This document shows, one piece after another, positions 1 through 62,012 of a stretch of 64,000 nt of DNA. The notes under the pieces are model-generated. The model saw nothing but the letters and a program-made list of their open reading frames with translations. It was not told the DNA's origin and did no database searches. Every line of letters starts with the position of its first letter. The stretch's first letter is position 1. The position numbers and the translations under genes were made by a program. The stretch lies in IMG/VR virus record IMGVR_UViG_3300021957_000004; one strand, 5' to 3'. The DNA comes from a virus.

Positions 1-1347
1 GGAAAAATACGCCTGTTTGATACGCGTAAAAAAACTCTATATAATGGTTTGTATAAGTATCTTAAACAATTTGCAGCAGAGCGCGAATACGAAGTCCTGA
101 CCAATGATTCAGCACAGTATGGAAGTGTAGAGCCAGAAAAACTCCCATTAGATTTTGGGACTGCGCCAATACTAACATCCAACCAAATACCTATTACCCC
201 AAGAGATTATCAATTAGATGCATTAGAACATGCATTAAAGAACGAAAGAAGTTTATTACTATCACCAACCGCATCTGGTAAATCCCTTATAATATATCTT
301 GCAGCGAGATGGTATATAGAACAACACCCTAGTCTTAAAATACTAATTGTAGTTCCTACAGTATCGTTAGTTGAACAAATGTATTCAGACTTCGAAGACT
401 ATAGTTCTACTGATGAGCATTTCCATACAGATGAATATGCTATGAAAATCCATGGTGGTACTGTAAAAGGTGAACGTATGGGTAGAATAGTTATATCCAC
501 GTGGCAATCAATCTACAAAAGACCAGCTGAATTCTTTCAGAACTTTGGGATGGTTATTGGCGATGAAGCACACCAATTTAAAGCTAAGTCTATGACTGCT
601 TTAATGGAAAAATGTACGGAAGCTAAATATAGAATTGGAACAACAGGTACATTAGATGGAACACAAACACACCAATTAGTGTTAGAAGGATTATTCGGTC
701 CAGTACATAAAGTAACTACAACCAAAGATTTAATAGATGACGGGCAATTAGCTAAGTTAAATATTAGTATGCTTTTATTAAAGTATAAAGAAGAACACTG
801 TAAAGAAATATCTAAACTAAAATACCAAGAAGAAATAGATTTTATTGTAAGGTATACACCAAGAAATAATTTTATATCTAACCTTGCTATTGACCAAGAT
901 GGTAATACATTAGTCCTGTTTAATTACGTCGAAAAGCACGGCAAACCCTTACATAACATCTTAAAAGATAAACTAAAGAATAAGAATAGAAAGCTTTTTT
1001 ATGTCTCGGGCGAGACGGACGTGGACACCCGCGAGAGCGTAAGATCAATAACCGAAAAAGAAAATGATGCTATTATTGTTGCTTCATTAGGTACATTTTC
1101 TACAGGTATAAATATTAGAAACCTACATAACATTATCTTTGCTTCTCCGAGTAAATCACAGATAAGAGTATTACAAAGTATTGGTAGAGGTTTAAGAAAA
1201 AGTGATAGAGATACAAAAGTATTTGATATAGCAGATGATTTACATTGGAAGACAAATAAGAATTATACCCTAAATCATGCAGCAGAAAGAATTAAAATAT
1301 ATTCAAAAGAAAAATTTGATTATGAATTATTTGAGATAAATATATAA
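1..1347 (+). CDS. uvsW: UvsW DNA helicase (SF2), 5'-truncated by window edge
   Basis: Frame is open from base 1 (GKIRLFD...); SPTASGKS, DEAH, TTGT and QSIGRGLR motifs. Confidence 0.95.
   Translation, partial: GKIRLFDTRKKTLYNGLYKYLKQFAAEREYEVLTNDSAQYGSVEPEKLPLDFGTAPILTSNQIPITPRDYQLDALEHALKNERSLLLSPTASGKSLIIYLAARWYIEQHPSLKILIVVPTVSLVEQMYSDFEDYSSTDEHFHTDEYAMKIHGGTVKGERMGRIVISTWQSIYKRPAEFFQNFGMVIGDEAHQFKAKSMTALMEKCTEAKYRIGTTGTLDGTQTHQLVLEGLFGPVHKVTTTKDLIDDGQLAKLNISMLLLKYKEEHCKEISKLKYQEEIDFIVRYTPRNNFISNLAIDQDGNTLVLFNYVEKHGKPLHNILKDKLKNKNRKLFYVSGETDVDTRESVRSITEKENDAIIVASLGTFSTGINIRNLHNIIFASPSKSQIRVLQSIGRGLRKSDRDTKVFDIADDLHWKTNKNYTLNHAAERIKIYSKEKFDYELFEINI
1003..1040. other. CpG-rich island inside uvsW
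   Basis: gtctcgggcgagacggacgtggacacccgcgagagcgt in an AT-rich gene; contains CGCTCTCGCGGGTG on the minus strand. Confidence 0.7.
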
Positions 1348-1348
1348 T

Positions 1349-1741
1349 ATGGAAGATTTAAATATAAGACATTTTAAACTTATGAATGGTGAAGATATCA
1401 TAGGTGTTGTATCTGTTAAAAATGATGATAGTTGGCTAATAGAAAGACCAGTACTTATTCAATCCAACATACTTGGCGGATTTCAGTTTACACATTGGTT
1501 CCCTTTTTCAAATACGAAAGTACATAAGCTACAATTTACTAGTATTATTAACAGTACTGGTATCGATCAAGACATAAAAGAAGATTACCTTAATTTTGTG
1601 CTCACTGCTAAGAAACGCACACGTAAGATAGAATCAGATATGGATGTGATGGCACAAATGGAAGCAGCCGTTGATCGTAGAGTAGAGGATGAGTTTAATG
1701 AAGGTAACCTTATTAAGGATAAGAAGAAGATAATTCATTAG
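1349..1741 (+). CDS. Conserved T4-like phage protein, Sm-like fold
   Basis: FKLMNGEDIIG...W-PFS pattern; position between uvsW and gp55. Confidence 0.6.
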   Translation: MEDLNIRHFKLMNGEDIIGVVSVKNDDSWLIERPVLIQSNILGGFQFTHWFPFSNTKVHKLQFTSIINSTGIDQDIKEDYLNFVLTAKKRTRKIESDMDVMAQMEAAVDRRVEDEFNEGNLIKDKKKIIH

Positions 1742-1770
1742 TGTACCTCTTCCCTCGAAAGTACTCTATT

Positions 1771-1800
1771 ATTATATCATATAAACTACGATTTGTAAAC
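1771..1800 (-). promoter_or_regulatory. Antisense early-type promoter
   Basis: Minus strand reads GTTTACaaatcgtagtttatatgaTATAAT, same spacing as the + strand early promoters. Confidence 0.75.
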
Positions 1801-1833
1801 CTTTTTTTTAATTATTTTTAAATTAATTTAATG

Positions 1834-1863
1834 GTTTACTTTTAGTTAAAACTATGGTATAAT
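1834..1863 (+). promoter_or_regulatory. T4-type early promoter for gp55-47-46
   Basis: GTTTAC-N18-TATAAT with extended TG. Confidence 0.85.
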
Positions 1864-1896
1864 ATACATTACTATGCTAAATTATGGAGATTAATA

Positions 1897-2463: not shown

Positions 2464-2465
2464 TT

Positions 2466-2654
2466 ATGAAGAAGATGTCAACCAAACAAAAAACTGCTCA
2501 CAATAGAGTGACCGCCAAAAGGCGTAAGTCATTTATGAAAAGACGAGCACATGTTGCTATACTAAAAGCAGCTTATAAAAAATCATCTGAGATATCTAGA
2601 CAATTAGAAAAGATTAGATATAGACAAGTCAAAGCGGCCAAGGCAGCACAATGA
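2466..2654 (+). CDS. Small, very basic hypothetical protein
   Basis: Tightly packed ORF, K/R-rich. Confidence 0.55.
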   Translation: MKKMSTKQKTAHNRVTAKRRKSFMKRRAHVAILKAAYKKSSEISRQLEKIRYRQVKAAKAAQ

Positions 2655-3712
2655 AGGTAGCAATATTAAATGACACCCACTGCGGTGTTAGGAATTCAAG
2701 TGATATATTTTTAAACTATCAAGGTGCTTTTTATAGGGATGTATTTTTTCCATATTTAAAAGAGCATGGTATTAAAAACATATTACACTTAGGTGATTAC
2801 TATGAGCATAGAAAGTTTGTTAACTTTAAAGCTTTAAACCAAAATAGAAAAGACTTCTTAGAACCTATGCGTGATGCTGGTATTACTATGGATATTATTC
2901 CTGGCAATCATGATGTATACTTTAAGAATACCAATGAGCTATGCTCCCTTAAAGAGCTTCTAGGCTACTTTACATCTAATGTTAACATTATCATGAAGCC
3001 AACCGTATTAGATTACGATGGTTTGGGCGTAGCAGTTATACCATGGATCAACAATGCTAACTATGAAGAATACACAAAATGGGCTATGAATTGCAAAGCT
3101 CCTATCCTTGGTGCACATCTAGAATTAAAAGGTTTTGAAATGATGGCAGGTATGCCTAATCCACATGGCATGAATGCAGATATATTTGGTAATTATGAAT
3201 CAGTATTATCTGGACACTTCCATACAAAATCATCACAGAACAATGTACATTATCTAGGTTCGCAAATGGAATTCACCTGGGCAGATGTTGACGATCCTAA
3301 ATATTTTCATATATTAGATACTGAGACACGCGAGATCACGCCCGTGCGTAACCCTATTACTATGTTTAAAAAGATTGTATACGATGATAGCAAAACAGAT
3401 TATAACGCTGTAGATGTTAGCGAATACGAAAAGAAATTTATTAAACTAATTGTTCTTAAGAAAGACGATTTATACATGTTTGATAAGTTCATAGATAAAC
3501 TACAGAGTATAGAAACTTATGAGCTAAAGATAGCAGAATCATTTGAAGAGTATATGGGAGAAAGCGTCGAAGACGAGAAAATATCCCTCGAAGATACAAC
3601 ACAACTTCTAGATTCCTATGTCGATGCAGTAGAAACCGATCTGGATAAAGATCACATTAAGGTAGAGTTAAGAAAACTTTACACTGAGGCGCAGAACCTA
3701 GAGGTAGTATGA
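2651..3712 (+). CDS. gp47: Recombination endonuclease subunit gp47 (Mre11/SbcD-like)
   Basis: DTH, HLGD, GNHD, SGHFH metallophosphoesterase motifs. Confidence 0.95.
   Translation: MKVAILNDTHCGVRNSSDIFLNYQGAFYRDVFFPYLKEHGIKNILHLGDYYEHRKFVNFKALNQNRKDFLEPMRDAGITMDIIPGNHDVYFKNTNELCSLKELLGYFTSNVNIIMKPTVLDYDGLGVAVIPWINNANYEEYTKWAMNCKAPILGAHLELKGFEMMAGMPNPHGMNADIFGNYESVLSGHFHTKSSQNNVHYLGSQMEFTWADVDDPKYFHILDTETREITPVRNPITMFKKIVYDDSKTDYNAVDVSEYEKKFIKLIVLKKDDLYMFDKFIDKLQSIETYELKIAESFEEYMGESVEDEKISLEDTTQLLDSYVDAVETDLDKDHIKVELRKLYTEAQNLEVV
3325..3349. other. CpG-rich island inside gp47
   Basis: gacacgcgagatcacgcccgtgcgt. Confidence 0.6.
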
Positions 3713-7845: not shown

Positions 7846-8973
7846 ATGAATAACATGAAAATATCAACCCAAAGAATCTTAGAAGAAATTTCTAATAAGT
7901 TTCCAGGCCAAACGGATTTCCGTAGAGCCATAATCGAAGACGTGGCAAAATCCATGGGCTTTACCGCTAAGGATTTTTATCCTTTACTTTCTTCTGACAA
8001 CAGAGTTAAGATCGGTACTTATTCCCTAGAAGGATTATTACCAGAAGCAGCTCCGGCAGCTATGGACCAGGTCCCAGCTACTGCGGCTCAAATGCAATCT
8101 ATTACAAGCGATGAAAGAACTTTCGCTACAGTGGATCCTACATTCGTCCCATGGGGTTCTTTTAAAGATGTTACTCAGATTATTAAATCTGAAATGTTTT
8201 ATCCTACTTACGTTTCTGGCTTATCCGGAAATGGTAAAACTTTTATGATCGAGCAAGCTTGTGCTAAGCTCGGCAAAGAATTCATTAGAGTTCAAATCAA
8301 TCCAGAAACGGATGAAGATGATTTACTTGGTGGATTTAGATTAATTAACGGCGAAACAGTTTTCGCTAAAGGCCCAGTTCTAAAAGCAATGGAATCCGGT
8401 GCAATACTTTTACTCGATGAGATCGATAGAGCTACCAACAAGATCATGTGTCTTCAAGGTATCTTAGAAGGCAAACCAGTACTTGTTAAAAAGACTGGTG
8501 AAACAATTACACCTAAAAAAGGTTTCAACGTATTCGCTACTGCCAATACTAAAGGCAAAGGTTCAGACGATGGTAGATTTACCGCAGCTAGTATCTTAGA
8601 TGATGCTTTCTTAGAAAGATTTACTATCTCAGTAGATATGCAATTCCCTTCAGTTTCTGTAGAGAAAAGAATTCTACAAAAACATATGGATAAATTTGAT
8701 ACCCAAGATACAGAGTTTGTAACCAAGCTTGTTACTTGGGCAGATATTATCCGTAAAACATTTTACGATGATGGCGTAGACGAAGTTATTTCTACTAGAA
8801 GACTTTGCCACGTTGTCCAAACATTCTCGATCTTTAAAGACAAAATGAAATCAATCGATCTTTGTATTTCTAGATTCGACGAAGATACAAAAATAGCTTT
8901 CTTGGATCTCTATACAAAAGTAGATTCAGGGGTAGAGCTAGAAATACCAGGAGATGAAGATGCCCAAATCTAA
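7846..8973 (+). CDS. cobS: CobS-like / MoxR-type AAA+ ATPase
   Basis: GLSGNGKT, LLLDEID, ATANTKGKG, AFLERF. Confidence 0.85.
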   Translation: MNNMKISTQRILEEISNKFPGQTDFRRAIIEDVAKSMGFTAKDFYPLLSSDNRVKIGTYSLEGLLPEAAPAAMDQVPATAAQMQSITSDERTFATVDPTFVPWGSFKDVTQIIKSEMFYPTYVSGLSGNGKTFMIEQACAKLGKEFIRVQINPETDEDDLLGGFRLINGETVFAKGPVLKAMESGAILLLDEIDRATNKIMCLQGILEGKPVLVKKTGETITPKKGFNVFATANTKGKGSDDGRFTAASILDDAFLERFTISVDMQFPSVSVEKRILQKHMDKFDTQDTEFVTKLVTWADIIRKTFYDDGVDEVISTRRLCHVVQTFSIFKDKMKSIDLCISRFDEDTKIAFLDLYTKVDSGVELEIPGDEDAQI

Positions 8974-9241
8974 ACCAAACTATAAATTTAACGAAGGAGC
9001 TTTGATTGCAGAGCTCCAAGGTTATATCGATGCTACCTATAATGGTCACTATTCTAAAAACAAATTCCAATCAACGGAATTTATTTCAGACTGCGGTCAT
9101 GGTATGGGTTTTGCAATTGGTAATATACTTAAATACGCGCAGAGGTACGGCCGTAAGGGCACACGCGACGATCACCGAAAAGATCTAATGAAAGTATTAC
9201 ATTACTCTTTAATTGCGCTTAGCGAACACGACAGGTCTTAA
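8954..9241 (+). CDS. DUF3310-like phage protein
   Basis: HY...GFAIGNILKYAQRYGRK...DLMKVLHY. Confidence 0.7.
   Translation: MKMPKSKPNYKFNEGALIAELQGYIDATYNGHYSKNKFQSTEFISDCGHGMGFAIGNILKYAQRYGRKGTRDDHRKDLMKVLHYSLIALSEHDRS
9134..9177. other. CpG-rich island
   Basis: tacgcgcagaggtacggccgtaagggcacacgcgacgatcaccg. Confidence 0.65.
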
Positions 9242-9242
9242 T

Positions 9243-9773
9243 ATGAATGTAATACTTAATTTTTGGAACAAACACATATGGACAATAACATTTGTTATTT
9301 GTTTACCCCTTATATTAGCTTTTATTTCCCAAAAGGTATATGGATCAAATAGTGACATTGGAGAACAAAGAGTATGCTTAGCACAAAACATTTACTTTGA
9401 ATCTGCTAACCAACCTGATGCAGGTAGAGTGGCAGTAGCCCAAGTGGTTTTAAATAGAGTGGACGATTTACAATTTCCCAATACAATTTGTGGAGTAGTT
9501 TATCAAGCTAAGATGAGAACTAATTGGAAAGGACAAGAAGTACCTATCCTAAACCAATGTCAATTTAGCTGGTTTTGTGATGGTAAGTCTGATGAACCTA
9601 CAGATTCTATTACTTGGATGCAATCCATTCGTATAGCAGATCAGGTTATGTTTGATTTTAACTTTGATCTTACCGAAGGTGCTTTATACTATCACACAAT
9701 TCATATCGATCCTTACTGGAACGATTACTTAACCCCCACGGTTATTATTAATGACCATATTTTTTACAAATAG
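9243..9773 (+). CDS. Cell wall hydrolase, SleB/Hydrolase_2 family, with N-terminal membrane anchor
   Basis: CLAQNIYFES, VAQVVLNRV, FPNTICGVVYQ, CQFSW, HIFY. Confidence 0.9.
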   Translation: MNVILNFWNKHIWTITFVICLPLILAFISQKVYGSNSDIGEQRVCLAQNIYFESANQPDAGRVAVAQVVLNRVDDLQFPNTICGVVYQAKMRTNWKGQEVPILNQCQFSWFCDGKSDEPTDSITWMQSIRIADQVMFDFNFDLTEGALYYHTIHIDPYWNDYLTPTVIINDHIFYK

Positions 9774-9834: not shown

Positions 9835-10506
9835 ATGCAATTATCAACCGACACAGTAGAAGTTCTAAAAAACTTTTCTACAATTAACCCAAACCTAGTT
9901 ATCGAACCTGGTCAAAAACTACATACGATCTCTGAATCTAAAACAGTTATGGCTAAGGCAGAAATCGTAGAAGACTTTCCTAATCAGGTTGGGATTTATG
10001 ATATGAATGAATTCCTTTCTGTGTTAAATCTAATACCAGGAAACAATATTGATTTCCACGATAAACATCTAACGATTTCTTCTGGACAACAGAATGTAAA
10101 TTACTTTTATTCTAATACGGAAATTCTAACTACACCACAGAAAGACATTAATATGCCTGATGTAGATGTTGGCGTTACCTTATCAGAAGATGTACTATCT
10201 AAAATTAAACAAGCAGCAAATGTTTTAGGACATACAGATTTATCTATTACAGGTAACGAAGGTTCTATCATAGCTAAAGTATTCGACGCAAAAGATGCTA
10301 CAGCAAATGATTATACTTTTAGTATTGAATCAGATAATACAGCTAAAGGCAAATTTAATTTTGATTTTAACATTGGTAACCTTAAGTTAATCCCAGGTGA
10401 TTACTTTTTAAGCTTATCAGAAAAGAAAATATCCCACTGGCAGAATATGAATTTCCCAGTAGAATATTTTGTTGCCCTAGAGCAATCAACAAATTTTAAT
10501 GTATAA
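9835..10506 (+). CDS. gp45: Sliding clamp gp45
   Basis: LKNFSTINPNL, GIYDMNEFL, YFVALE; synteny. Confidence 0.93.
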   Translation: MQLSTDTVEVLKNFSTINPNLVIEPGQKLHTISESKTVMAKAEIVEDFPNQVGIYDMNEFLSVLNLIPGNNIDFHDKHLTISSGQQNVNYFYSNTEILTTPQKDINMPDVDVGVTLSEDVLSKIKQAANVLGHTDLSITGNEGSIIAKVFDAKDATANDYTFSIESDNTAKGKFNFDFNIGNLKLIPGDYFLSLSEKKISHWQNMNFPVEYFVALEQSTNFNV

Positions 10507-13955: not shown

Positions 13956-13974
13956 TTCCTTGATTGAAAAAAAG

Positions 13975-14004
13975 GTTTACAAACCTTCTAAACTATGGTA
14001 TAAT
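13975..14004 (+). promoter_or_regulatory. Early promoter for DNA polymerase
   Basis: GTTTAC-N18-TATAAT. Confidence 0.85.
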
Positions 14005-14013
14005 ATACTCACT

Positions 14014-16575
14014 ATGCAATTTTATACAAACATTTCTCGCTATGGCAATATGCTACTTTATCGTGGTATAGAAAACGGCCAAAGAGTTCAAAAGAAAATT
14101 AAATACAAGCCCACATTATTCGTGGCAACCACCAAAGCAACCAAATGGAAATCCTTAGATGGATATCCTGTTGCTCCCATACAATTCGAATCTATGCGTG
14201 ATGCTAAAGATTGGGTTCAGCAAAACAAAGATGTAGCTGGCCGTAAGATCTTTGGTAATACTAAACATCAGGCAGCTCTGGCTAACGATCTATTTCCTGG
14301 CCATATAGAGTTTGATAGATCTAAAATTAACGTAACCACTATTGATATAGAAGTTCAATCCGATGATGGATTCCCAGAACCTTCTGCAGCAGCTAAAATA
14401 GTTACGGCTATATGTCTTAAAAATAATATCGACAATACATATTATGTTTGGGGCTTAGGCGATTACGATGTAAGTAAATCCCTAATGAAAACCAATCGCG
14501 TGATCTATAAAAAATGTGTCGATGAACAAGAACTTCTTATAGACTTTATTAATCATTGGGCTACACCTTCGCACACGCCCGATGTTATTACTGGCTGGAA
14601 CTCTAAGTTCTTCGATATACCTTATTTGGTTAATCGTATTCGTAGAGTCTTCGGCCCAGATCTTGGCGAACAAAATATTAAAAAGCTTTCACCTTGGGGT
14701 ATGGTAGAATCCAGAGAGGTGGCAATTGGCTACAAATCTAGCAACAGAAATCAAACGTATGACTTCCAGGGTATATCCCAAATGGATTATATGGAAGTAT
14801 TTAAAAAGTTTGGTTATGCTTATGGTCAACAAGAATCATATTCACTTAATAATATTGCTCACGTAGTTCTTGGCGAAGAGAAACTATCATACGAAGAACA
14901 CGGATCACTATTCGATTTATATAAAGCTGATCATCAAAAGTTTATTGATTATAATATTAAAGATGTAGAATTGGTAGATCGCTTCGAGGATAAAATGGGT
15001 TTAATTACCCTTGGCCTTACTATGGCATACCGAGGCGGAGTTAACTATACTGACGTATTTGGTACTACCGCAATATGGGATTCTATTATCTTCCGTGATC
15101 TATATCAAAACAACGTAATAGTTCCTTTCCCGAAAGATCAACTCAAAGGTGATTACCCTGGTGGTTATGTAAAAGAACCACAGGTTGGCATGCACGATCA
15201 TGTAGTTAGTTTCGATTTAAACTCTCTATATCCATCGCTCATTATGCAATACAATATGTCACCAGAAACAATTCTGAATAAAACAACAGCAGGAGTAGAT
15301 GTAGAAAATGTATTAAAAGCAACTAAGATCGAAAGATCATCAGATGAATGCATAGCAGTTGGCGGACAACATTTTAGAACAGATGTCCAAGGTGTATTAC
15401 CTAAGATCATCGAAGAGATGTACACTGAACGGGTAGATGTTAAAAAAGCTATGATTAAAGCTCAGCAAGAATTACAGAGAATAGACAAAAGTGACAAACA
15501 AGAACTCTACAGAATACAAAAAGAAATATCGCTCAACGAAAATAGACAAATGGCAATTAAGATTCTTCTTAATAGTCTTTACGGTGCTCTCGGCAATCGT
15601 TATTTTAGGTTCTTCGACCAACGGGTCGCAGAAGCAATTACGCTATCCGGACAAGCCATCATACGATGGGGTGAAAATGCAGCCAATGATTACCTAAACA
15701 AGGCCCTTAAAACCTCCTCAGACTACGTCTTAGCAATAGATACTGATTCATTATATATTGGGTTAGGTCCTTTAGTAGATGCGGTTAAACCGGATAATCC
15801 TATAGATTTCCTAGATAAAGTTGGCCGTGAAGCCATAGAACCTGTCTTTGAAAAAGCATATCAAAAGTTCTACGACATATTTGGCGGCTACGGAAACAAA
15901 ATGGTTATGTCCCGAGAGGTTATAGCAGATCGTGGTATATATCTGGCTAAGAAAAGATATATTCTAAATGTGTTAGATAATGAAGGCGTTAGATATGCAC
16001 AACCTAAAATTAAAACAATTGGCGTAGAAGCTAATAAAAGTTCTACTCCGCAAGCTTGCCGTGAAGCTCTAAAAGAAATGTTTAAGCTAATTATTTCTTC
16101 TGATGAAGCTACAGTCCAGGCAGCAGTACAACAATTCAAAGATCATTACTTTGCTCTTAGACCAGACCAGATTGCTTTCCCGCGTGGTGCTAATAATATT
16201 ACTGGTTGCATAGAAAGACGTACGTATAGAAACCAAGCGGGCGAGCAGGTTACTACCGAATTTTATAAGAAAGGTACACCGATTCACGTGCGTGCGGCCC
16301 TCGCGTACAACTGGCTAAGAAAAGATCTAGATCTAAAACAATATCCAGAACTTAGAAATGGCGATAAGATTAAATTCTTATATTTAAAAGAAGGTAAGTT
16401 TAAGCAAAATGTAATTGCTTTCCCAGACTTTCTCCCAAAAGAATTTAACTTAGAACAACACATTGATAAGGAATTACAATTCCAAAAAACATTTACCGAT
16501 GCAATAGAACCAATTCTAAATGCTATTGGCTGGACATCAGTCAAAGTTAATTCACTGGAGGATTTCTTTGGATAA
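14014..16575 (+). CDS. gp43: Family B DNA polymerase gp43
   Basis: DIEV exonuclease motif, SFDLNSLYPS, KILLNSLYG, IDTDS; start placed downstream of the promoter. Confidence 0.97.
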   Translation: MQFYTNISRYGNMLLYRGIENGQRVQKKIKYKPTLFVATTKATKWKSLDGYPVAPIQFESMRDAKDWVQQNKDVAGRKIFGNTKHQAALANDLFPGHIEFDRSKINVTTIDIEVQSDDGFPEPSAAAKIVTAICLKNNIDNTYYVWGLGDYDVSKSLMKTNRVIYKKCVDEQELLIDFINHWATPSHTPDVITGWNSKFFDIPYLVNRIRRVFGPDLGEQNIKKLSPWGMVESREVAIGYKSSNRNQTYDFQGISQMDYMEVFKKFGYAYGQQESYSLNNIAHVVLGEEKLSYEEHGSLFDLYKADHQKFIDYNIKDVELVDRFEDKMGLITLGLTMAYRGGVNYTDVFGTTAIWDSIIFRDLYQNNVIVPFPKDQLKGDYPGGYVKEPQVGMHDHVVSFDLNSLYPSLIMQYNMSPETILNKTTAGVDVENVLKATKIERSSDECIAVGGQHFRTDVQGVLPKIIEEMYTERVDVKKAMIKAQQELQRIDKSDKQELYRIQKEISLNENRQMAIKILLNSLYGALGNRYFRFFDQRVAEAITLSGQAIIRWGENAANDYLNKALKTSSDYVLAIDTDSLYIGLGPLVDAVKPDNPIDFLDKVGREAIEPVFEKAYQKFYDIFGGYGNKMVMSREVIADRGIYLAKKRYILNVLDNEGVRYAQPKIKTIGVEANKSSTPQACREALKEMFKLIISSDEATVQAAVQQFKDHYFALRPDQIAFPRGANNITGCIERRTYRNQAGEQVTTEFYKKGTPIHVRAALAYNWLRKDLDLKQYPELRNGDKIKFLYLKEGKFKQNVIAFPDFLPKEFNLEQHIDKELQFQKTFTDAIEPILNAIGWTSVKVNSLEDFFG
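16285..16308. other. CpG-rich island inside gp43
   Basis: cacgtgcgtgcggccctcgcgtac. Confidence 0.65.
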
Positions 16576-16900
16576 GATAATATATGTAGGTACTAAGCCA
16601 GGTAATTTCCCACCAGAGAAATCACCGACTATTCGTAGGATAACTAAATGGTCAGAGCAGGCTGGAGTACAAGATTGGGATTGGACCAATCTATCAGATA
16701 ACAACATGATAGAAAAGATTAAAGGTTGCAAAGTAATAGCTATGGGTAATGAAGTCCATAATTACTTTGTAAAGAATAAAATAGAACACTTAAAGGTTCC
16801 ACATCCATCTGGATTGAACCGAATGTGGAATAACCCAGAACTAGAACCTTCGGTAATAGATCAAATTAGGGGTTTACATTTAAATGAAACTATGGTATAA
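16568..16900 (+). CDS. Minimal uracil-DNA-glycosylase-superfamily protein
   Basis: GGAGGA SD and TTG start; IIYVGTKPG, VIAMG, PHPSGLN resemble UDG/MUG motifs. Confidence 0.6.
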   Translation: MDKIIYVGTKPGNFPPEKSPTIRRITKWSEQAGVQDWDWTNLSDNNMIEKIKGCKVIAMGNEVHNYFVKNKIEHLKVPHPSGLNRMWNNPELEPSVIDQIRGLHLNETMV

Positions 16901-18524: not shown

Positions 18525-18600
18525 GGGGCGGTAGCTCAGTAGGGAGAGCGCCTGGTTTGCAACCAGGAGGTCGTGGGTTCGATCCCCTCTCGCTCCACCA
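18525..18600 (+). tRNA. tRNA-Ala (anticodon TGC), CCA encoded
   Basis: GGGGCGG acceptor with G3:U70, CCTGG-TTTGCAA-CCAGG anticodon arm, GTTCGA T-loop, ends ACCA. Confidence 0.97.
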
Positions 18601-18954: not shown

Positions 18955-19467
18955 ATGGAAAAATTAATCGAATATATTAACACCTTAGACTTAAAAATAA
19001 GTCAGGAAATGTTTGACCGACATGATGAAGAATATGCTACTACTAAACGTGGCTATTCTTCTCGTGCTAATCTGGATTCAGAATATCTAGAAGACATGGT
19101 CGTAGAAAATGTAAAAGGCGCTAAAGAAGTTACTGGCAAAGATAGATATTTTGCCGATATTAAATACAAAGGTATGGTTATAGACTTTAAAGAAATAGCT
19201 TCTGTTTGGTATAACTTACAACATGATTACATTAGATATATGGATGCTAACCGCAAAGGTAAGCTTACCCATTTTCTATTTTTTAAAAGCAATAGACTAA
19301 GATACGACAACAATCTTCCAGATGTTATCCCAGTAGATTATGATCTAAAGTTTGAATTTTTAGGTATTTACGATGTAGATACCGTTATGAGTGGATTGGA
19401 TAGAAACATGAAACGAGTGAATGTATATAATTTAGGAGACAATTATGGCAGGCGAATCAACATTTAA
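18955..19467 (+). CDS. Hypothetical protein, possible PD-(D/E)xK nuclease
   Basis: EYLE...FADIKY...IDFKEI. Confidence 0.45.
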   Translation: MEKLIEYINTLDLKISQEMFDRHDEEYATTKRGYSSRANLDSEYLEDMVVENVKGAKEVTGKDRYFADIKYKGMVIDFKEIASVWYNLQHDYIRYMDANRKGKLTHFLFFKSNRLRYDNNLPDVIPVDYDLKFEFLGIYDVDTVMSGLDRNMKRVNVYNLGDNYGRRINI

Positions 19468-20395: not shown

Positions 20396-20743
20396 ATGAA
20401 ACCACTACACATACTTAAACAAGCCGCTGATCTTATAGCTAAGAAAGGCAATGACTACCAAAATCCTAAATCTAGGATTAGACAATCAGACTACTATCCA
20501 AATGGCGCACAAACCATTTTAGATATTATGACTGGCAAAGTTAATCGTATGCATTCTGTTTTGGATGCTATGAAAGACGATGAAAACTATATGGAAAACT
20601 TCGAATCACTACAAGATTCTGCAATAGATTTAATTAACTATTCTGCCTTCTTCTCATCATATTTAGATTATGATATTGACGGCCAAACCCCAGACAAAGA
20701 CATATTTAACAGGAACATAATCAGAGATGACAATAGCAAGTAA
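20396..20743 (+). CDS. Nucleotide-modification-associated domain 1 (Nmad1/DUF1599-like, MazG-like fold)
   Basis: KKGNDY...K..R...ESLQDSAIDLINYS. Confidence 0.7.
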   Translation: MKPLHILKQAADLIAKKGNDYQNPKSRIRQSDYYPNGAQTILDIMTGKVNRMHSVLDAMKDDENYMENFESLQDSAIDLINYSAFFSSYLDYDIDGQTPDKDIFNRNIIRDDNSK

Positions 20744-40733: not shown

Positions 40734-43034
40734 ATGAACGGAACTAATGTAATGGAAATTAAAGTCGCTAAACGAGATGGAACACATCAAACTTTTGATT
40801 TAGATAAAGTACACAAAGTATTGGAATGGGCAGTAGAAGACATAACAGGTGTTTCTATGTCCGAGATAGAAATAAAAGCCAATATCCAATTGTACGATAA
40901 AATCCCAGCTTATGATATACATGAGCTATTAATTAAATCAGCAGCTGAGCTTATCTCAGAACACACCCCAAATTATCAATTTGTAGCAGCAAGGTTAATA
41001 TCCTATAAGCTAAGAAAAGAAGCTTATGGTCAATACAAACCTTTGCCACTTGTTGATATTATAAAACGAAATATTAATTTAGGAGTATATGATAATGCTA
41101 TTCTAAATAGTTATTCAGAAAATGAATTAAACGAATTAGATGCTTATATTAAACACGACCGAGATGATAACTTTACCTATGCAGGTATGGAACAATTTAG
41201 AGGTAAGTACTTAGTCCAAGATAGAAGCACTAAAGACATATATGAAACTCCACAGGTTTTGTATATGATGGTTGCGGCAACTTTGTTTGCTAAATATAAT
41301 GAAGGAAGAATAAAATATGTTAAAGATTATTATGATGCAATATCTCAATTCTATATCTCTTTACCTACGCCGATTATGGCTGGTGTACGTACTCCAACCC
41401 GTCAGTTTTCAAGTTGTGTGCTTATTGAATCTGGCGACAGTCTTGATTCTATCAATGCTACTGCAACTTCCATAGTAAGATATATCTCTAAGAAAGCTGG
41501 TATAGGCATCGGTACGGGCTCCGTACGTGCTGCAGGAGCGCGCGTAGGCGATGGTTCAATAGTTCATACGGGTTTAATTCCATTTTTAAAGTACTTTCAA
41601 TCGGCCGTTAAGTCGTGCTCGCAGGGAGGCGTACGCGGGGGCGCGGCGACCGTGTACCTACCATTATGGCATTATGAGTTTGAAGATCTTGTTGTATTAA
41701 AAAATAACAAAGGTACTGAAGAGAATAGGGTTAGGCATATGGATTATGCTTTCCAATTAAACAAACTAATGTATGAAAGACTTATAACTGGTGGTAATAT
41801 AACATTGTTTGATCCTAATGACGTACCAGGACTATACGATGCATTCTATGAAGACCAAGACAAGTTTAAAGAACTATATGAAAAGTATGAACGTGCATAT
41901 AGTGTAAGAAAGAAAACATTACCTGCTTTAGAAGTATTCCAAGCTTTATTGACAGAAAGAAAAGATACTGGTAGAATATATATTATGAACGTAGATCATG
42001 CGAATGAGCACGGTTCATTTAAACCAGATTTAGCTCCTATCCGTATGAGTAATTTATGTTGTGAAATTGATTTACCAACTAAGCCTTTAGAATATCCAGA
42101 TGATCCAAATGGTGAAATATCTTTGTGTACTCTGTCTGCTATTAATTGGGGATTAATTAATGCACCACATGAATTTAAAAAGTATTGTAATCTAGCAGTT
42201 AGAGCATTAGATGAACTATTAGATTATCAAGACTATCCTATTCAGGCAGCTAAAAAAGGTACTATGAATCGTAGACCTCTAGGTATAGGTATTATTAACC
42301 TTGCTTATTTCTTAGCTAAGCGTGGATTAAAATATGACGAATCTGCATTTGAAGTTGTAGATGAATATGCAGAAGCATGGAGTTATTACTTAATTAAAGC
42401 TTCTTCTAAGCTAGCACGAAAAAAAGGTGCATGTTTATTAAATAATCAAACAAAATACGCGTCTGGAGAGTTGCCAATCGATACATATAAGAGTGCGATA
42501 GATAATTTAACAGAGCATAAAACACGCATGCCATGGGAAGAGCTCAGAACTGATCTCAAAGAAAATGGCATTCGTAATTCGACTCTCATGGCATTAATGC
42601 CCGCAGAAACAAGCGCACAGATTTCTAATAGTACAAATGGTATTGAACCACCAAGAGCTTTAGTATCTTACAAGCAATCTAAGGATGGGGTAATGGCACA
42701 GGTAGTGCCTGGGTATCATCACCTTAAAAACAAGTATGACCTTTTATGGGATCAAAAATCCCCAGATGGTTATTTAAAGATCTGCGCTATTTTACAGAAA
42801 TATATAGATCAAGGTATATCTGTAAACACATCTTATAATCCAGAACATTATGAGGATAATAAGATACCAATGTCTGCTATGATCCAAGATCTAGTGACAG
42901 CTTACAAGTATGGTTTAAAACAACTATACTATTTTAACACACATGACGGCTCAGGCGAAATGAAAGACATTGAATTGCCCGAGCTTGATATTACAATTGA
43001 AGATGACGAGGACTGCGAAAGCTGCAAAATATGA
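40734..43034 (+). CDS. nrdA: Class Ia ribonucleotide reductase alpha subunit
   Basis: ATP cone, QFSSC, SNLCCEI, MPAETS, C-terminal CESC. Confidence 0.97.
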   Translation: MNGTNVMEIKVAKRDGTHQTFDLDKVHKVLEWAVEDITGVSMSEIEIKANIQLYDKIPAYDIHELLIKSAAELISEHTPNYQFVAARLISYKLRKEAYGQYKPLPLVDIIKRNINLGVYDNAILNSYSENELNELDAYIKHDRDDNFTYAGMEQFRGKYLVQDRSTKDIYETPQVLYMMVAATLFAKYNEGRIKYVKDYYDAISQFYISLPTPIMAGVRTPTRQFSSCVLIESGDSLDSINATATSIVRYISKKAGIGIGTGSVRAAGARVGDGSIVHTGLIPFLKYFQSAVKSCSQGGVRGGAATVYLPLWHYEFEDLVVLKNNKGTEENRVRHMDYAFQLNKLMYERLITGGNITLFDPNDVPGLYDAFYEDQDKFKELYEKYERAYSVRKKTLPALEVFQALLTERKDTGRIYIMNVDHANEHGSFKPDLAPIRMSNLCCEIDLPTKPLEYPDDPNGEISLCTLSAINWGLINAPHEFKKYCNLAVRALDELLDYQDYPIQAAKKGTMNRRPLGIGIINLAYFLAKRGLKYDESAFEVVDEYAEAWSYYLIKASSKLARKKGACLLNNQTKYASGELPIDTYKSAIDNLTEHKTRMPWEELRTDLKENGIRNSTLMALMPAETSAQISNSTNGIEPPRALVSYKQSKDGVMAQVVPGYHHLKNKYDLLWDQKSPDGYLKICAILQKYIDQGISVNTSYNPEHYEDNKIPMSAMIQDLVTAYKYGLKQLYYFNTHDGSGEMKDIELPELDITIEDDEDCESCKI
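41510..41658. other. Two CpG-rich islands inside nrdA (41510-41550, 41602-41658)
   Basis: cggtacgggctccgtacgtgctgcaggagcgcgcgtaggcg and cggccg...gcgtacgcgggggcgcggcgaccgtgtacc. Confidence 0.7.
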
Positions 43035-44101
43035 TATTAAAGAAAAATAAAAAATCCCATTTAGAAAAGAATATGTTTTTGGATGAAGAAGTAGATATCC
43101 AAAGATTCGATATTTTAAAATATCCAGCACTAGATAAGATTACAGAAAAACAACTAGGATTCTTTTGGAGACCAGAAGAAGTAGATGTGTCAAAAGACAA
43201 AAAAGATTTTAACGGACTAACTTTAAATGAACAACATATTTTCACATCTAATCTCAAAAGGCAAATTTTACTGGACTCTGTACAAGGTCGGGCACCGAAC
43301 CTTGCTTTCCTTCCTATTGCTTCGTTACCCGAGATTGAGAATTGGATTGAAACTTGGAGCTTTTTTGAAACTATTCATAGTCGTAGCTACACCCATATTA
43401 TTAGGAATATCTATCCTAACCCTTCTACTGTTTTTGACGGCATGCTTGATGTAAAAGAAATACTAGAATGTGGAAATGACATAGCACAATACTATGATGA
43501 TCTAATCGATTGTAATAGTTCAGCTACAAATAGAATGCAGCACAAACAAGCTTTATGGATGTGTATGTTATCAGCAAATGCACTAGAAGGAATTAGATTC
43601 TATGTATCCTTCGCGTGCTCGTGGGCGTTCGCGGAACTTAAAAAGATGGAAGGCAATGCTAAGATCATTAAGTTTATCGCAAGAGACGAGAATGTGCATT
43701 TGGCGGCGACCACAACCATAATTAAAAATATGTTAAAAGAAGATCCAGACTTTGTTAAGATACAAAAACAAACAGAAAATGAATCAGTAAATTTATTCGT
43801 AAGAGTTATTGAACAAGAAAAAGAATGGGCTAAGTTCTTATTTAAAAATGGTTCAATGATTGGTTTAAATGAACAAATACTATGTGATTATATAGAGTGG
43901 ATTGGATGTAAACGTATGAGAGCAATAGGATTACCTTGTCCTTATACCGTATCTAAAATGAATCCATTACCATGGACTGAAAAGTGGATTGGCGGTGGTA
44001 ACGTACAAGTTGCTCCACAAGAAACAGAAATAACATCTTATATAACTGGCGGTGTTAAACAAGATGTTGATGATAAAACTTTATCTGGATTAAGCTTATG
44101 A
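43031..44101 (+). CDS. nrdB: Class Ia ribonucleotide reductase beta subunit
   Basis: FFWRPEEV, ETIHSRSY, LEGIRFY, RDENVH, APQETE. Confidence 0.97.
   Translation: MILKKNKKSHLEKNMFLDEEVDIQRFDILKYPALDKITEKQLGFFWRPEEVDVSKDKKDFNGLTLNEQHIFTSNLKRQILLDSVQGRAPNLAFLPIASLPEIENWIETWSFFETIHSRSYTHIIRNIYPNPSTVFDGMLDVKEILECGNDIAQYYDDLIDCNSSATNRMQHKQALWMCMLSANALEGIRFYVSFACSWAFAELKKMEGNAKIIKFIARDENVHLAATTTIIKNMLKEDPDFVKIQKQTENESVNLFVRVIEQEKEWAKFLFKNGSMIGLNEQILCDYIEWIGCKRMRAIGLPCPYTVSKMNPLPWTEKWIGGGNVQVAPQETEITSYITGGVKQDVDDKTLSGLSL
43608..43634. other. CpG-rich island inside nrdB
   Basis: ccttcgcgtgctcgtgggcgttcgcgg. Confidence 0.6.
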
Positions 44102-44320: not shown

Positions 44321-44761
44321 ATGAAAGAATTAGGAATGAGTTTAGTAGGATGTTTAGCAATAGGATTATTCTTTGTTGCTAAAGTATATCCAAATCTTGA
44401 GTATACTGGTTATAGCAGTAACCAATCTTGTACTGGTGAATGCTATGAAGAATATGTTAAAGTGAATGGAACATCAGTAGAAATAGAACAAAAAAAGAAA
44501 GCACTAGCTGCGGGTGATCCGTTTAGTTCAATTAAACCTTTATGGGCTGGTTGTGCTGCATGTCATGGAGTAGATGGTGGCGGAGGTGTAGGACCTAAAC
44601 TTGCTGGTCAATCATCAGACTATATAATTAATAGACTTACAGCATACAAGAACAACGAACAGGTAGGACCAATGAGTGCTATGATGTGGGGTCAAGCAGG
44701 TATGCTATCAGATAATGATATAGATACTATAGGAAAATTCATACAGGAGACAATGAAATGA
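44321..44761 (+). CDS. Membrane-anchored class I cytochrome c (c553/c4-like)
   Basis: CAACH haem motif, GPKLAGQ, Met-rich distal ligand region, LSDNDI. Confidence 0.9.
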   Translation: MKELGMSLVGCLAIGLFFVAKVYPNLEYTGYSSNQSCTGECYEEYVKVNGTSVEIEQKKKALAAGDPFSSIKPLWAGCAACHGVDGGGGVGPKLAGQSSDYIINRLTAYKNNEQVGPMSAMMWGQAGMLSDNDIDTIGKFIQETMK

Positions 44762-45141: not shown

Positions 45142-45564
45142 ATGGATTGGATATATAAAGGCAAAACATTCGTACCACCAGAAGACTTCTCTCCCGAGAA
45201 GATGTATGGATTCATTTATCAGATAAGAAATACTGAGAATGATATGAAGTACATAGGCAAGAAATTCTTTTGGAGTAAGAAAACCCTCCCACCTTTAAAG
45301 GGACAAAAAAGAAAAAGAAGATCAATCGTTGAATCTGATTGGCGTAAGTATTGCGGTTCTTCCAAAAGATTAGTAGAAGATATAGCCGAAGTAGGACTGG
45401 ATAAGTTCCACAGAGAGATACTTTATATTGGTACTATGAAAGGAGAACTAGCCTACATGGAAGCTAAACTCCAGTTTGATCATGAGGTATTACTAAAAGA
45501 TGACTATTATAATGGCATTATTAATATCAGATTGGGATCAAATAGTGTAAATATATTGAAATAA
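45142..45564 (+). CDS. GIY-YIG family endonuclease-like protein
   Basis: GFIY...KYIGKK, ESDW..YCGS, YYNG. Confidence 0.8.
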   Translation: MDWIYKGKTFVPPEDFSPEKMYGFIYQIRNTENDMKYIGKKFFWSKKTLPPLKGQKRKRRSIVESDWRKYCGSSKRLVEDIAEVGLDKFHREILYIGTMKGELAYMEAKLQFDHEVLLKDDYYNGIINIRLGSNSVNILK

Positions 45565-59403: not shown

Positions 59404-60142
59404 TGAACACAACCACGTAGAAATAGACCAAGTTAGTTCTAGTGATAACTTTAACCTGACTATAGAACAGATCGGGTATGAAACCCATGCAAGATTCTCT
59501 TTTGACCACAATAACAATACTGTAAATCTTTTACAATCAGGAAACAATATGTATTTTGGATATTCAGATGCATGGGGTTCTGGTTATAGTTGGGGTGGGG
59601 ATTTAGATGGATTACGTAATGAGATAGATGTAAGACAAAAATGTTCTGTGACTGTTTGTAATGCTAATGATTTCCAATTTCACGTTTGGGGTGATGACAA
59701 TAAAGTCGTATTCGGACAAGGATATGAAAACAATAATAGTACTACACCAAACTGGAATTATGACGGGACAGAGCCAGGTGGAAATTTTGTTAGATTAGAT
59801 ATTCACGGGGACAATAACGAATTTAAGGGAAGTCAAAAGCAGGATACGAATACTATATCCCATTCTATAATAGCAAATATATACACTGATAATAATGATG
59901 TATACGTTAAACAAATGCAAAATGGAAACAAATCATTTACTCTTACAATTAGAAATTCGCATGGTAATGAAGTTGACGTTGTACAGAAAAATGACGGAGC
60001 TCATACAGCAACAGTAAATTTATTAGGATCACAGCCAACAGATTTATCTTTAACACAATCAGGTAGTACAACCCAATCATATACGTTATCCCAAAATTGC
60101 GTGACAGTTGGTGGTTGTAGTATATCAGTAACACAGAATTAG
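59330..60142 (+). CDS. Secreted curlin-like repeat protein
   Basis: Signal peptide; IEQIG, LLQSG, LTQSG, HGDNN units; N/Q/G-rich. Confidence 0.7.
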   Translation: MRGKKTLSLLAMVSLSLSSYVKAGDEHNHVEIDQVSSSDNFNLTIEQIGYETHARFSFDHNNNTVNLLQSGNNMYFGYSDAWGSGYSWGGDLDGLRNEIDVRQKCSVTVCNANDFQFHVWGDDNKVVFGQGYENNNSTTPNWNYDGTEPGGNFVRLDIHGDNNEFKGSQKQDTNTISHSIIANIYTDNNDVYVKQMQNGNKSFTLTIRNSHGNEVDVVQKNDGAHTATVNLLGSQPTDLSLTQSGSTTQSYTLSQNCVTVGGCSISVTQN

Positions 60143-60164
60143 TATTGCATAGTATAACACTTTT

Positions 60165-62012
60165 ATGAAATATATAACAACGATTTGGACAAGTATTGCA
60201 CTTTGTATTGCACTTTTAGGCATAAGAGTTTTAGACCCAGTTTTAGTAGAACAATTAAGATTAAATAGTTTCGATCAATATATTCAGAGCTTACCCGACA
60301 AGGAATCCGATGTTGTTCTACTATCATTCGGAGAAGAAACTCTAGCTACATATGGCCAATACCCTTTTCCAAGACATACCTACGCACAACTGATATCAGA
60401 TCTAAGAGCTGCTAACGCTGGGATGATTGGGTTTACTATTATGTTTCCAGAAGCAGATAGGTTTGGTGGTGATGAGGTATTTATTTCCTGGGTAAACAAT
60501 AACGGAGTCATTCTCGCGCAAGACGCGTCCTCTCGCGGGCGCTCGGATACGGCCCCGTACGTGGGTACGGCCACGCTCGGCGAGGGCGACGCGTACGACT
60601 TTGTTCCTAAATATAGTGGGTTAGTAACAAATATAAAAGAATTAGAAGACGCTGCATGGGGTGTAGGATTAATAAATGCAGGTCAAGAAGTAGATAATAT
60701 AACAAGACGGATTCCTTTATTGTCCCAAATAAACGGACAGTTATATCCATCAATGCCTTTAGAAATCATAAGAGTAATACAAGATAAAAAGTCTTATTCA
60801 CTAAAAGCAAACTATGATGGTATAGAAAATGTAATGATTCCACCATATGAACCTATTCAAACAGATTACAATAGTTCTATATGGTTAAATATGAATTATA
60901 CTCATAAAGAATATGAATACGGTAAAGATGTATTACCTAATCTTCAAGGTCAAACAGTCTTGGTTGGTCTAACAGCAAGTGGCCTTGCTTCTCAAATACC
61001 AACTCCTCAAGGTTTGTTCTCTGCTCACCAATTGCAGGCGTCGGCACTTCAGACTGTGATAGATGGGAATTCGATATCTCGTCCTGGTTGGACATACTTA
61101 GTTGAATTGTTAGCTCTCGCCATAGGATCGGTTCTGATTGTTCTAGGGATATATCAGATGTCTGTCTTGACAGGTGCTGTATTCTCCGCCGTGATCGTGC
61201 TTGGCTACTCTGTATATGTTTGGTACGTCTGGACCTCAATGGGTATACTCCTTGATCTAACCTATCCTATAATAGTATATATACTTTCTTTTTCCTCAGC
61301 CGCATTTAATAATTTTTATATACAATTTAAATTAAGACAACAGATTAAAGGTCAATTCTCTACATACCTTTCTCCAGATATGGTTAACATGCTAGTCAAA
61401 GATCCTAGCTTAATGAAGCTCGGTGGTGATAGAAAAGAAATGACATTCCTCTTTATGGATATATGTGGTTTTACCCCTATCTCGGAATACTATAAGAACA
61501 ATGATGATCCAGAAGGATTAGTAGAATTAGTCAATGAATTCCTAGATGCTATGACTACTATCATCTTATCCAACGGCGGAACCATCGATAAATATATGGG
61601 TGACTGTATAATGGCATTTTGGAATGCTCCATTACCTTGTAAGAACCATGCTGAAATGGCAGTTAAGTCAGCAATAGAAATAGAAGAAAAAACAAATGAA
61701 CTTAAAGAACTTTATAAAGAACGTGGCCTTCCCGATATTAACGTTGGCACTGGTGTTAACACCGGCGATTGCATTGTTGGTAATATGGGTAGTAAATCCA
61801 GATTTGATTATTCGGTCATTGGAGATGCAGTCAACCTTGCCGCCAGGCTCGAGGCTACCGCGGCTCGTCATGAGTATGTAGAATACAAAACCATTATATC
61901 ATCCTTCACACAACAACTTCTTCCTCAGGGTTATGTCTCTCATAACATCGGAACCATCAAGGTTAAGGGTAAAGAAGAAGAAATCACTATATATTCCCCT
62001 AAAAAGAAATAG
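60165..62012 (+). CDS. CHASE2-domain class III adenylate/guanylate cyclase
   Basis: YPFPR CHASE2 motif, TM cluster, FMDICGFT, DKYMGDCIMAFW, GDAVNLAARLE, VKGK. Confidence 0.93.
   Translation: MKYITTIWTSIALCIALLGIRVLDPVLVEQLRLNSFDQYIQSLPDKESDVVLLSFGEETLATYGQYPFPRHTYAQLISDLRAANAGMIGFTIMFPEADRFGGDEVFISWVNNNGVILAQDASSRGRSDTAPYVGTATLGEGDAYDFVPKYSGLVTNIKELEDAAWGVGLINAGQEVDNITRRIPLLSQINGQLYPSMPLEIIRVIQDKKSYSLKANYDGIENVMIPPYEPIQTDYNSSIWLNMNYTHKEYEYGKDVLPNLQGQTVLVGLTASGLASQIPTPQGLFSAHQLQASALQTVIDGNSISRPGWTYLVELLALAIGSVLIVLGIYQMSVLTGAVFSAVIVLGYSVYVWYVWTSMGILLDLTYPIIVYILSFSSAAFNNFYIQFKLRQQIKGQFSTYLSPDMVNMLVKDPSLMKLGGDRKEMTFLFMDICGFTPISEYYKNNDDPEGLVELVNEFLDAMTTIILSNGGTIDKYMGDCIMAFWNAPLPCKNHAEMAVKSAIEIEEKTNELKELYKERGLPDINVGTGVNTGDCIVGNMGSKSRFDYSVIGDAVNLAARLEATAARHEYVEYKTIISSFTQQLLPQGYVSHNIGTIKVKGKEEEITIYSPKKK
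60513..60599. other. Largest CpG-rich island, inside the cyclase gene
   Basis: 25 of 29 consecutive codons end in G/C; contains CCTCTCGCGGGCG. Confidence 0.85.

Follow-up and report, generated by a model that had tools for sequence, protein, structure and literature searches.

RESULTS

CpG-rich islands in the genes of a marine T4-like phage

The DNA analyzed here is a 64,000-nucleotide stretch (the window; positions are counted from its first base) that corresponds to bases 26452 to 90451 of a 130,478-bp viral contig, IMG/VR record IMGVR_UViG_3300021957_000004, with 35.5% GC and an estimated completeness of 72%. By gene content the contig is a marine T4-like myovirus; its T4-like gene set includes a family-B DNA polymerase, a gp41-like helicase, UvsX, gp46/47, a sliding clamp, and the ribonucleotide reductase (RNR) subunits NrdA and NrdB. 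The closest named relatives are cyanomyophages, whose gp43 is 44 to 48% identical to the polymerase, and no near-identical phage record was found in the phage collection searched. The plus strand carries nearly all genes, including every window feature given coordinates below, and the frequency of G or C at third codon positions (GC3) is only 0.20 genome-wide. An earlier reading of this DNA from its letters alone (the sequence-only reading) had listed 12 abrupt CpG-rich patches written into synonymous codons of these AT-rich genes. All 12 were found where it had placed them, with 66 to 84% GC, 4 to 19 CpG dinucleotides, and AT-rich codons on either side. These islands are a real, DNA-level pattern that is retained by close relatives of the phage.

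The first island (1003 to 1040; 71% GC, 7 CpG, 12 of 13 third positions G or C) encodes the peptide VSGETDVDTRESV in a UvsW-like SF2 helicase with ResIII, DEAD, and Helicase_C matches, whose open reading frame (ORF) runs off the window start and ends at 1347. It is followed by islands in a gp47/Mre11-like phosphoesterase with a Metallophos domain (gene, 2651 to 3712; island, 3325 to 3349; 68% GC, 5 CpG, 7 of 9 third positions) and in a small DUF3310 protein (gene, 8954 to 9241; island, 9134 to 9177; 66% GC, 8 CpG, 11 of 15 third positions). The family-B DNA polymerase gp43 (13960 to 16575) is recoded over residues 776 to 783 (16285 to 16308; 75% GC, 7 of 8 third positions), and a thymidylate synthase (TS)-like enzyme of the dCMP type (20727 to 21458) is recoded at its catalytic-cysteine motif (21192 to 21234; 77% GC, 9 CpG, with 8 of the 8 possible CpG in the core). 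In the gp41-like DnaB-family helicase (gene, 24879 to 26267), a weak island covers the Walker A sequence ALAGTGVG (25452 to 25474).

The island in a DUF6267 protein (gene, 29895 to 31133; island, 30073 to 30100; 75% GC) starts at KWDG, a ligase-like KxDG sequence that resembles motif I of nucleotidyltransferases and ligases, and is present in sister lineages too. Longer homologs of this protein, considered as possible intein carriers, proved to be domain fusions to cytidylyltransferase/DUF5824 or kinase-like domains that match the neighboring gene (31152 to 32618). That neighbor encodes a cytidylyltransferase-like protein and has an island of its own (31585 to 31609; 84% GC, 6 CpG, 7 of 9 third positions). 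The RNR large subunit NrdA (40734 to 43034) carries two islands, over residues 258 to 273 (41505 to 41550) and over the SCSQGGVRGGAAT loop at residues 290 to 309 (41602 to 41658; 74% GC, 11 of 13 possible CpG). In NrdB (43031 to 44101) the recoded stretch (43608 to 43634; 74% GC, 6 of 7 possible CpG, 9 of 10 third positions) is SFACSWAFAE, which we take to reach up to an iron-ligand Glu. The largest island (60513 to 60599; 74% GC, 19 of 24 possible CpG) lies in the CHASE2 domain of a CHASE2-adenylate/guanylate cyclase (60165 to 62012), and as previously noted, 25 of its 29 codons end in G or C. The same gene is recoded again at the class III cyclase catalytic motif (VNLAARLE...) of the Guanylate_cyc domain (61839 to 61869; 77% GC, 7 of 11 third positions). 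Three further sites that had been listed as weaker, near 25815, 35600, and 50557, were only modest, with 40 to 45% GC and 5 to 6 CpG.

The whole 130-kb contig holds about 20 islands, five of which lie outside the window in structural genes. Two long fibre-like genes outside the window (contig positions 121049 to 124663 and 127401 to 129638) have one island each, at the similar motif ...R-A-x-I-S-x-G....

The islands are not products of chance, amino acid content, or assembly

There were 16 windows of 24 nucleotides with at least 20 G or C, against a binomial expectation of 0.25. Log-likelihood segments that reached 10 nats or more numbered 13, compared with 1.35 when mononucleotides were shuffled. 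The enrichment survived a control for amino acid content. When synonymous codons were shuffled within each gene with the amino acids fixed, 12 segments of at least 10 nats stood against 1.8 expected (maximum, 5) and 5 segments of at least 15 nats stood against 0.07 expected; a scan of third positions only gave 10 segments against 1.5 expected. An assembly chimera, which had been named as an alternative, is contradicted by the recurrence of the same islands across many IMG/VR contigs that are independent of one another, as well as in contigs from four different Sequence Read Archive (SRA) studies. The SRA contigs run across the islands of nrdA, nrdB, and the cyclase gene with zero or few differences: the second NrdA island is spanned by an independent-study contig with zero differences, and the CHASE2 island is spanned by contigs of all four studies with 0 to 11 differences per ~1 kb. 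The same phage was recovered in sequencing runs of 16 studies.

One GC-rich segment (18525 to 18600) was rejected as an island because it is a tRNA gene, tRNA-Ala (UGC), the sole tRNA gene in the window. The Ala codon GCG is the most used island codon (24 uses), which may coincide with this by chance. Also left out of the island counts, being noncoding, was a conserved, GC-rich, terminator-like intergenic inverted repeat downstream of UvsX in relatives that lack the TS-like gene (L181:12965-13003, and likewise in L184, L186, L187, L192, L194, and L219).

Islands follow dinucleotides, not codon rarity or a GC-rich donor

The islands are in-frame recodings over 25 to 90 bp that align without gaps to homologs encoding the same peptides in A/T-ending codons. 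The gapless codon alignments led us to reject an inserted GC-rich mobile element. In CpG content the islands attain 78% of the maximum open to their peptides, and in nearest-neighbor DNA duplex stability they attain 95% of it. Among dinucleotide steps, CG (118 observed versus 90 expected) and GC (83 versus 69) were raised, while GG (38 versus 53) and CC (27 versus 45) were depleted. The choice of G versus C at third positions thus follows dinucleotides, which indicates that the signal acts on DNA composition. A rise of CG and GC with a fall of GG and CC fits DNA-DNA stacking energies and not the published RNA-RNA or RNA-DNA values. No strand asymmetry was found in the islands (G ≈ C), and ten islands folded as RNA hairpins no better than composition-matched shuffles (z of −0.9 to +1.1).

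Codon choice within the islands bears on two simple explanations. Rare-codon clusters that are conserved in position are a known phenomenon, and clusters that slow ribosomes at catalytic motifs would agree with the rarity of G/C-ending codons in this genome. The islands do not take the rarest synonyms, though: GGC, CGC, CCG, and CTC are chosen ahead of the rarer GGG, CGG, CCC, and CTG, codon choices follow dinucleotides, and orthologs in sister phages write the same motifs in common codons. We therefore rejected simple rare-codon clusters as the cause and consider translational slowing very improbable. The second explanation, also raised by the sequence-only reading, is gene conversion from a GC-richer relative or host. 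Sharp boundaries and the local amino acid differences that travel with some islands would suit imported tracts. CTG is the dominant Leu codon of GC-rich bacteria, yet it serves for 0 of 11 Leu codons in the islands (CTC:CTG, 9:0), CGC is chosen over AGG, and GTA, CAA, GAA, and GGT are retained, a usage unlike that of GC-rich bacteria. Graded intermediates occur among AT-rich relatives, and none of the ~230 related loci compared offered a GC-rich context. A GC-rich donor is, in our judgment, close to untenable.

Specific sequence signals fared little better. Alternating purine-pyrimidine runs, which had been described as abundant, were indeed enriched, but the effect was small (59% of steps versus 52% under the null; mean longest run, ~8 nt). 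A Z-DNA tract requires long uninterrupted (CG)n-like alternation of ~12 nt or more, so that runs this short lend the proposed Z-DNA weak support at best. A common binding motif for a genome-organizing or packaging protein was not borne out: CCCGCGAG occurs in four islands, with a P value of 0.008 under uniform G/C recoding that becomes 0.12 with island codon preferences, and for 10- and 12-mers common to islands P was 0.11 to 0.24 when peptides and codon preferences were kept. The shared 8- to 12-mers are explained by similar peptides (ALAG, RES) together with island codon preferences. No genome-wide excess of CG-type palindromic restriction sites and no regular spacing of islands were seen. 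The islands are a compositional, DNA-level recoding and not a set of specific binding sequences.

Islands occupy conserved motifs with a G/C-rich peptide frame

As the sequence-only reading had remarked of several of them, islands sit on catalytic motifs, and these are rich in Gly, Ala, and Arg: the helicase Walker A, KxDG, the TS-like Cys motif, RNR motifs that include an invariant loop of NrdA and a helix at the NrdB iron site, and the cyclase VNxAxRLE. Relatives also have islands on the dCMP-deaminase N-terminal motif and the clamp-loader P-loop. Among close relatives, the entropy of island stretches was at the 5th to 19th percentile for 4 of 5, i.e., they were more conserved than average, and in island-free alleles 4 of 7 island sites were among the best-conserved 30-nt windows (83rd to 99.6th percentile). 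The G/C content of first and second codon positions (GC12) correlates negatively with GC3 genome-wide, but windows with a GC3 of at least 0.8 have a mean GC12 of 0.61 versus 0.42 overall. Most windows of high GC12 are Gly-rich low-complexity linkers (GC12, 0.9), which are never islands. For an island to form, it seems that the peptide frame must be G/C-rich and the stretch conserved as well.

Islands are constrained in close relatives and turn over in blocks

Marine metagenomes contain hundreds of related contigs, and the comparison covered ~230 related loci. Silent sites were conserved two- to fourfold better in islands than in their flanks (synonymous codon differences of 0.08 to 0.26 versus 0.31 to 0.38). 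Together with a G/C choice led by dinucleotides and not by codon rarity, this upholds the proposal that a DNA-level signal overlies the coding sequence. The NrdA islands occur in only the 13 closest of 80 relatives (L001 to L013), in which both are almost invariant though flanking silent sites vary. The first is restricted to this clade; the second has an almost invariant core there, and the 67 other relatives have AT-rich codons in its place. The TS-like island is 91 to 100% identical in nucleotide sequence among relatives with flanks that are 60 to 90% identical. In the gp43 island, which is common to a subset of relatives, third positions stay G or C but G is swapped for C, and across polymerase and gp41 lineages G/C is likewise held at island third positions while the identity of the base differs and graded intermediates are present. 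What is maintained, judging from these alignments, is composition, not exact sequence.

Close relatives keep islands at orthologous positions, and other lineages have islands at other motifs. Stronger versions of the weak gp41 island occur in relatives, mostly in one clade. With the island columns left out, the tree of gp41 implied mostly one origin, two independent occurrences, and one abrupt block loss, which was complete and involved 6 to 8 substitutions on a short branch inside an island-bearing clade. Half-islands were found in nrdA (relative L037) and in the TS-like gene (L091, L095, and L096). Half-islands and the gp41 block loss indicate that islands turn over by blocks and mosaics. 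Six of seven amino acid differences in islands raised GC (among the changes were I to V, K to R, E to A, Q to A, and L to A), as is expected of a force that is blind to coding.

Three sister phages that are syntenic with the contig (NrdA, ~82% identical) contained 0, 0, and 2 CpG-type islands by one count, or 1, 3, and 7 when GC-rich segments of any kind were counted, versus 13 to 16 here. No islands were found in the 50-kb replication region of T4.

One island coincides with an intein site

The blockwise gain and loss of islands also fits the recoding of homing-endonuclease targets. Conserved motifs are what the inteins, introns, and free-standing nucleases of related phages target, and at such sites many silent changes to population-rare G/C and CpG states would escape cutting and spread as repair templates. 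Homing nucleases target conserved sequences and drive local gene conversion (PMC2988022; PMC2677866). In intein-bearing gp41 homologs (41 to 53% identical overall, 810 to 836 amino acids, with LAGLIDADG and Hint domains), the intein is inserted exactly within the Walker A motif on which the gp41 island lies. At least two different intein types occupy Walker A among the metagenomic homologs P0003, P0005, P0007, P0010, and P0012; one begins after AGTG and the other within GGINVGK. In addition, the nrdA and nrdB islands lie 1.5 to 3.6 kb upstream of a gene (45142 to 45564) for a SegE-type GIY-YIG protein of 140 amino acids that consists of the nuclease domain only (E = 3.6e−35), located ~1 kb downstream of nrdB. 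This gene, the sole one of its kind in the contig, is found at the same place in sister genomes with 57 to 59% identity and looks like a resident rather than a mobile gene. Between it and nrdB lies a 146-amino-acid ORF (44321 to 44761) with a cytochrome c domain (E = 1.5e−9), an unusual phage cargo. A screen of island neighbors for nucleases returned a PNKP-type HAD phosphatase (62201 to 62641), a cell-wall hydrolase (9213 to 9773), and the gp45-like sliding clamp (9835 to 10506).

Several observations disagree with the recoding of homing sites. Sisters that have no nrdA islands nevertheless retain the SegE-like gene as a conserved resident. The contig itself gave no intein, classical GIY-YIG, or HNH_3 match, and 50 related contigs (~2.2 Mb) gave 0 Intein_splicing matches, 0 HNH_3 matches, and one weak GIY-YIG match in a search that did not extend to LAGLIDADG and other families; the fetched loci contained no split or interrupted genes. 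Inteins of NrdA homologs are inserted at residues 227/228 and ~441, off the islands, and these sites are unrecoded here (GC3, 0.1 to 0.3). Escape from cutting requires neither G/C nor CpG, islands also occur in the CHASE2 sensor domain and in structural genes, and T4 has 15 homing nucleases yet no islands in its replication genes. In sum, there is one striking coincidence, at gp41, and much negative context. We regard homing-site recoding as the main rival of our preferred reading, slightly less probable than that reading and, on balance, unlikely.

A possible link between islands and cytosine modification

A selected DNA-level function was considered next to nuclease escape. The islands might work as "clamps" of very stable duplex, or as patches in which hypermodified cytosine is at its densest on the two strands; either could protect conserved sequence or be recognized by a phage protein during packaging, replication, or nicking. 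Near-maximal duplex stability, near-saturation with CpG, and constraint on island silent sites would all be in keeping with such a role. Furthermore, the phage encodes the dCMP-type TS homolog, an AsnB-like amidotransferase, a methyltransferase (MTase)-like protein, and a PD-(D/E)xK nuclease-like protein, and all four genes are missing at the syntenic place in the sisters with 0 to 2 islands. Island density is 7.3 per 100 kb in contigs that carry the TS-like gene versus 2.6 in those without it. This whole-contig association, which is not phylogenetically controlled, makes a link to cytosine modification suggestive.

A comparison gene by gene showed little difference between TS-positive and TS-negative sequences (a dense window in 45 of 187 versus 8 of 53), distant TS-positive lineages are island-poor, and the ligase-like island occurs without the TS-like/AsnB/MTase module. 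The syntenic sister phages do nearly without islands, and T4 has hydroxymethylcytosine yet no islands in the 50 kb scanned. The cheapest places for clamps, the Gly-rich linkers, are unused, and a role of this kind finds neither even spacing nor a shared motif among the islands. We therefore consider a selected clamp or modification function rather unlikely.

The PD-(D/E)xK protein (18955 to 19467) was modeled with a mean confidence score (pLDDT) of 86 and gave weak Foldseek matches (E ≥ 0.01) to EcoRV, HincII, SwaI, and Hjc and none to Vsr. Its gene is overlapped by that of the MTase-like protein (both within 18955 to 20356), which has DPxxGxGT and an unusual TPYP motif. The pair has the look of a restriction-modification system, lies upstream of the TS-like, AsnB, and dCMP-deaminase genes, and is missing in the sisters.

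A mini UDG-like gene beside the polymerase is associated with islands

A small ORF (16520 to 16900) that overlaps the end of the polymerase gene encodes a candidate effector, a putative mini uracil-DNA glycosylase (UDG)-superfamily protein with GxxPG and HPSGLN motifs; the family is 105 to 126 amino acids long. UDG was the sole Pfam family matched by all 11 homologs, with a best E value of 1.3e−4 that is below the curated cutoff, and the nearest Atlas clusters are viral, with UDG on 15 to 36% of their members. These matches weakly but consistently suggest that the ORF belongs to the UDG superfamily. Sequence and profile searches of the family against the Protein Data Bank returned nothing meaningful. 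The gene is restricted to the clade that is rich in islands and is absent from the three island-poor syntenic sister genomes. Loci with the UDG-like gene had 11.1 islands per 100 kb, against comparison values of 4.3 and 1.2, and at least one island was present in 14 of 16 loci with the gene versus 7 of 20 without it (Fisher P = 0.002, uncorrected for shared ancestry).

The shift from weak (A/T) to strong (G/C) base pairs affects silent and replacement sites and is independent of codon optimality, as at a GC-biased gene conversion hot spot. The left-right phylogenetic correlation, in which recombination breakpoints were sought, was low throughout (0.57 to 0.65); its minimum in nrdA fell 30 to 60 nt past the second island, and a dip coincided with the right edge of the TS island.

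DISCUSSION

The islands are real, act at the level of dinucleotides, are constrained, vary among lineages, and are turned over in blocks. Our best guess, offered tentatively, is that they result from recombination-linked, GC-biased repair of heteroduplex DNA or from homology anchoring. T4-like phages depend on recombination between coinfecting relatives. When such relatives recombine, heteroduplex DNA would form preferentially at conserved motifs, mismatches at silent positions would be repaired with a bias toward G:C and above all CpG, and the patch would be homogenized among genomes as a short conversion tract. It could then serve as an anchor for homology that is better and more stable still. 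The small UDG-superfamily gene beside the polymerase is a candidate for the origin of the bias, since its product might remove T, U, or hydroxymethyluracil opposite G. We infer from these patterns that recombination is involved, which way repair is biased, and that the UDG-like protein plays a part.

A number of points weigh against biased repair. Breakpoint signal at the islands is weak, being limited to weak dips in the left-right distance correlation, and the highly recombinogenic T4 has no islands in 50 kb. Simple GC-biased conversion predicts neither CTC over CTG (9:0) or CGC over AGG nor the sharp edges and near saturation of the islands. In island-free alleles, the nrdA island sites are at only the 54th to 62nd percentile of nucleotide identity. 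Some loci that lack the UDG-like gene still have islands (L086, L102, L121, and L143), the UDG assignment falls under the Pfam cutoff, and the association of islands with gene content is confounded by shared ancestry. To our knowledge, GC-biased conversion is undescribed in T4-like phages.

Known systems share some features of the islands. GC-biased gene conversion acts at recombination hot spots of eukaryotes and has been proposed for bacteria. The islands resemble its products in that a local, coding-blind rise in GC at silent and some replacement sites varies among lineages and would be tied to heteroduplex DNA, but they differ in being 25 to 90 bp long, nearly saturated, CG/GC-biased, and placed inside phage genes on catalytic motifs. 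In Escherichia coli, very-short-patch (Vsr) repair shapes oligonucleotide frequencies, and marker effects are known from phage crosses. Vsr corrects T:G mismatches in context on heteroduplex DNA and so enriches the corrected word, as would be supposed here of the UDG-superfamily candidate. In contrast to that system, no Vsr homolog was identified in this phage, and its PD-(D/E)xK protein weakly resembles type II restriction enzymes.

Exchange among T-even phages offers two further parallels. T-even tail-fibre genes recombine between conserved motifs (His boxes and Gly-rich motifs), so that there, too, short conserved coding motifs link exchange between diverged genes, and two fibre-like genes here carry islands. 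Most islands of this phage are in enzymes, however, and we know of no report that the T-even tail-fibre motifs are GC3 or CpG saturated. Known homing-immunity polymorphisms consist of few substitutions, not CpG saturation. The intronless homing of T-even seg and mob genes, marker exclusion, and intein sites (PMC2988022; PMC2677866) resemble the present case in that conserved motifs of replication and nucleotide metabolism are targeted and short conversion tracts spread among related phages, and one island is the gp41 intein site. Unlike the T-even phages, this phage and 50 related contigs gave no match to such nucleases or inteins beyond those described above, and T4 for its part has no islands in the 50 kb scanned.

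Rare-codon clusters are likewise runs of genome-rare codons at fixed protein positions, but island codons are not the rarest and the trait is missing in sister orthologs. The mobile GC clusters of yeast mitochondria and the palindromic elements of Rickettsia, both of which are insertions, are also GC-rich patches in AT-rich genomes that sometimes lie inside genes. The islands differ from them in aligning gaplessly to AT-coded homologs and in encoding the native motif. No description of such islands in phages was found in the literature searched.

More speculatively, and improbable as stated in full, one clade of marine T4-like phages may follow a convention at the DNA level that is so far undescribed. 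In it, conserved motifs would be rewritten to their most stable, CpG-saturated form, giving identical anchors of 25 to 90 bp shared between diverged genomes, and these would be made and policed by a phage-encoded mismatch glycosylase of a mini UDG type, perhaps in connection with cytosine hypermodification. If true, this would be a phage-borne, directed, and biased form of gene conversion, and the places at which genomes can swap modules or withstand nucleases would be shaped by it.

The usual view of silent sites in phage genes is that they drift with the composition of the genome. In this phage, patches in at least 12 unrelated genes are held at the opposite extreme in ocean-wide populations, while sisters with the same genes are without them. 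Whatever its cause, a strong force acts on this DNA and can be read straight from the sequence. If biased repair is the cause, GC-biased conversion would extend to viruses, and the islands would mark exchange points of mosaic phage genomes. If nuclease escape is the cause, they would provide a sequence signature of past homing-endonuclease pressure, and if they are linked to modification, they would suggest that hypermodified DNA has a new kind of reader.

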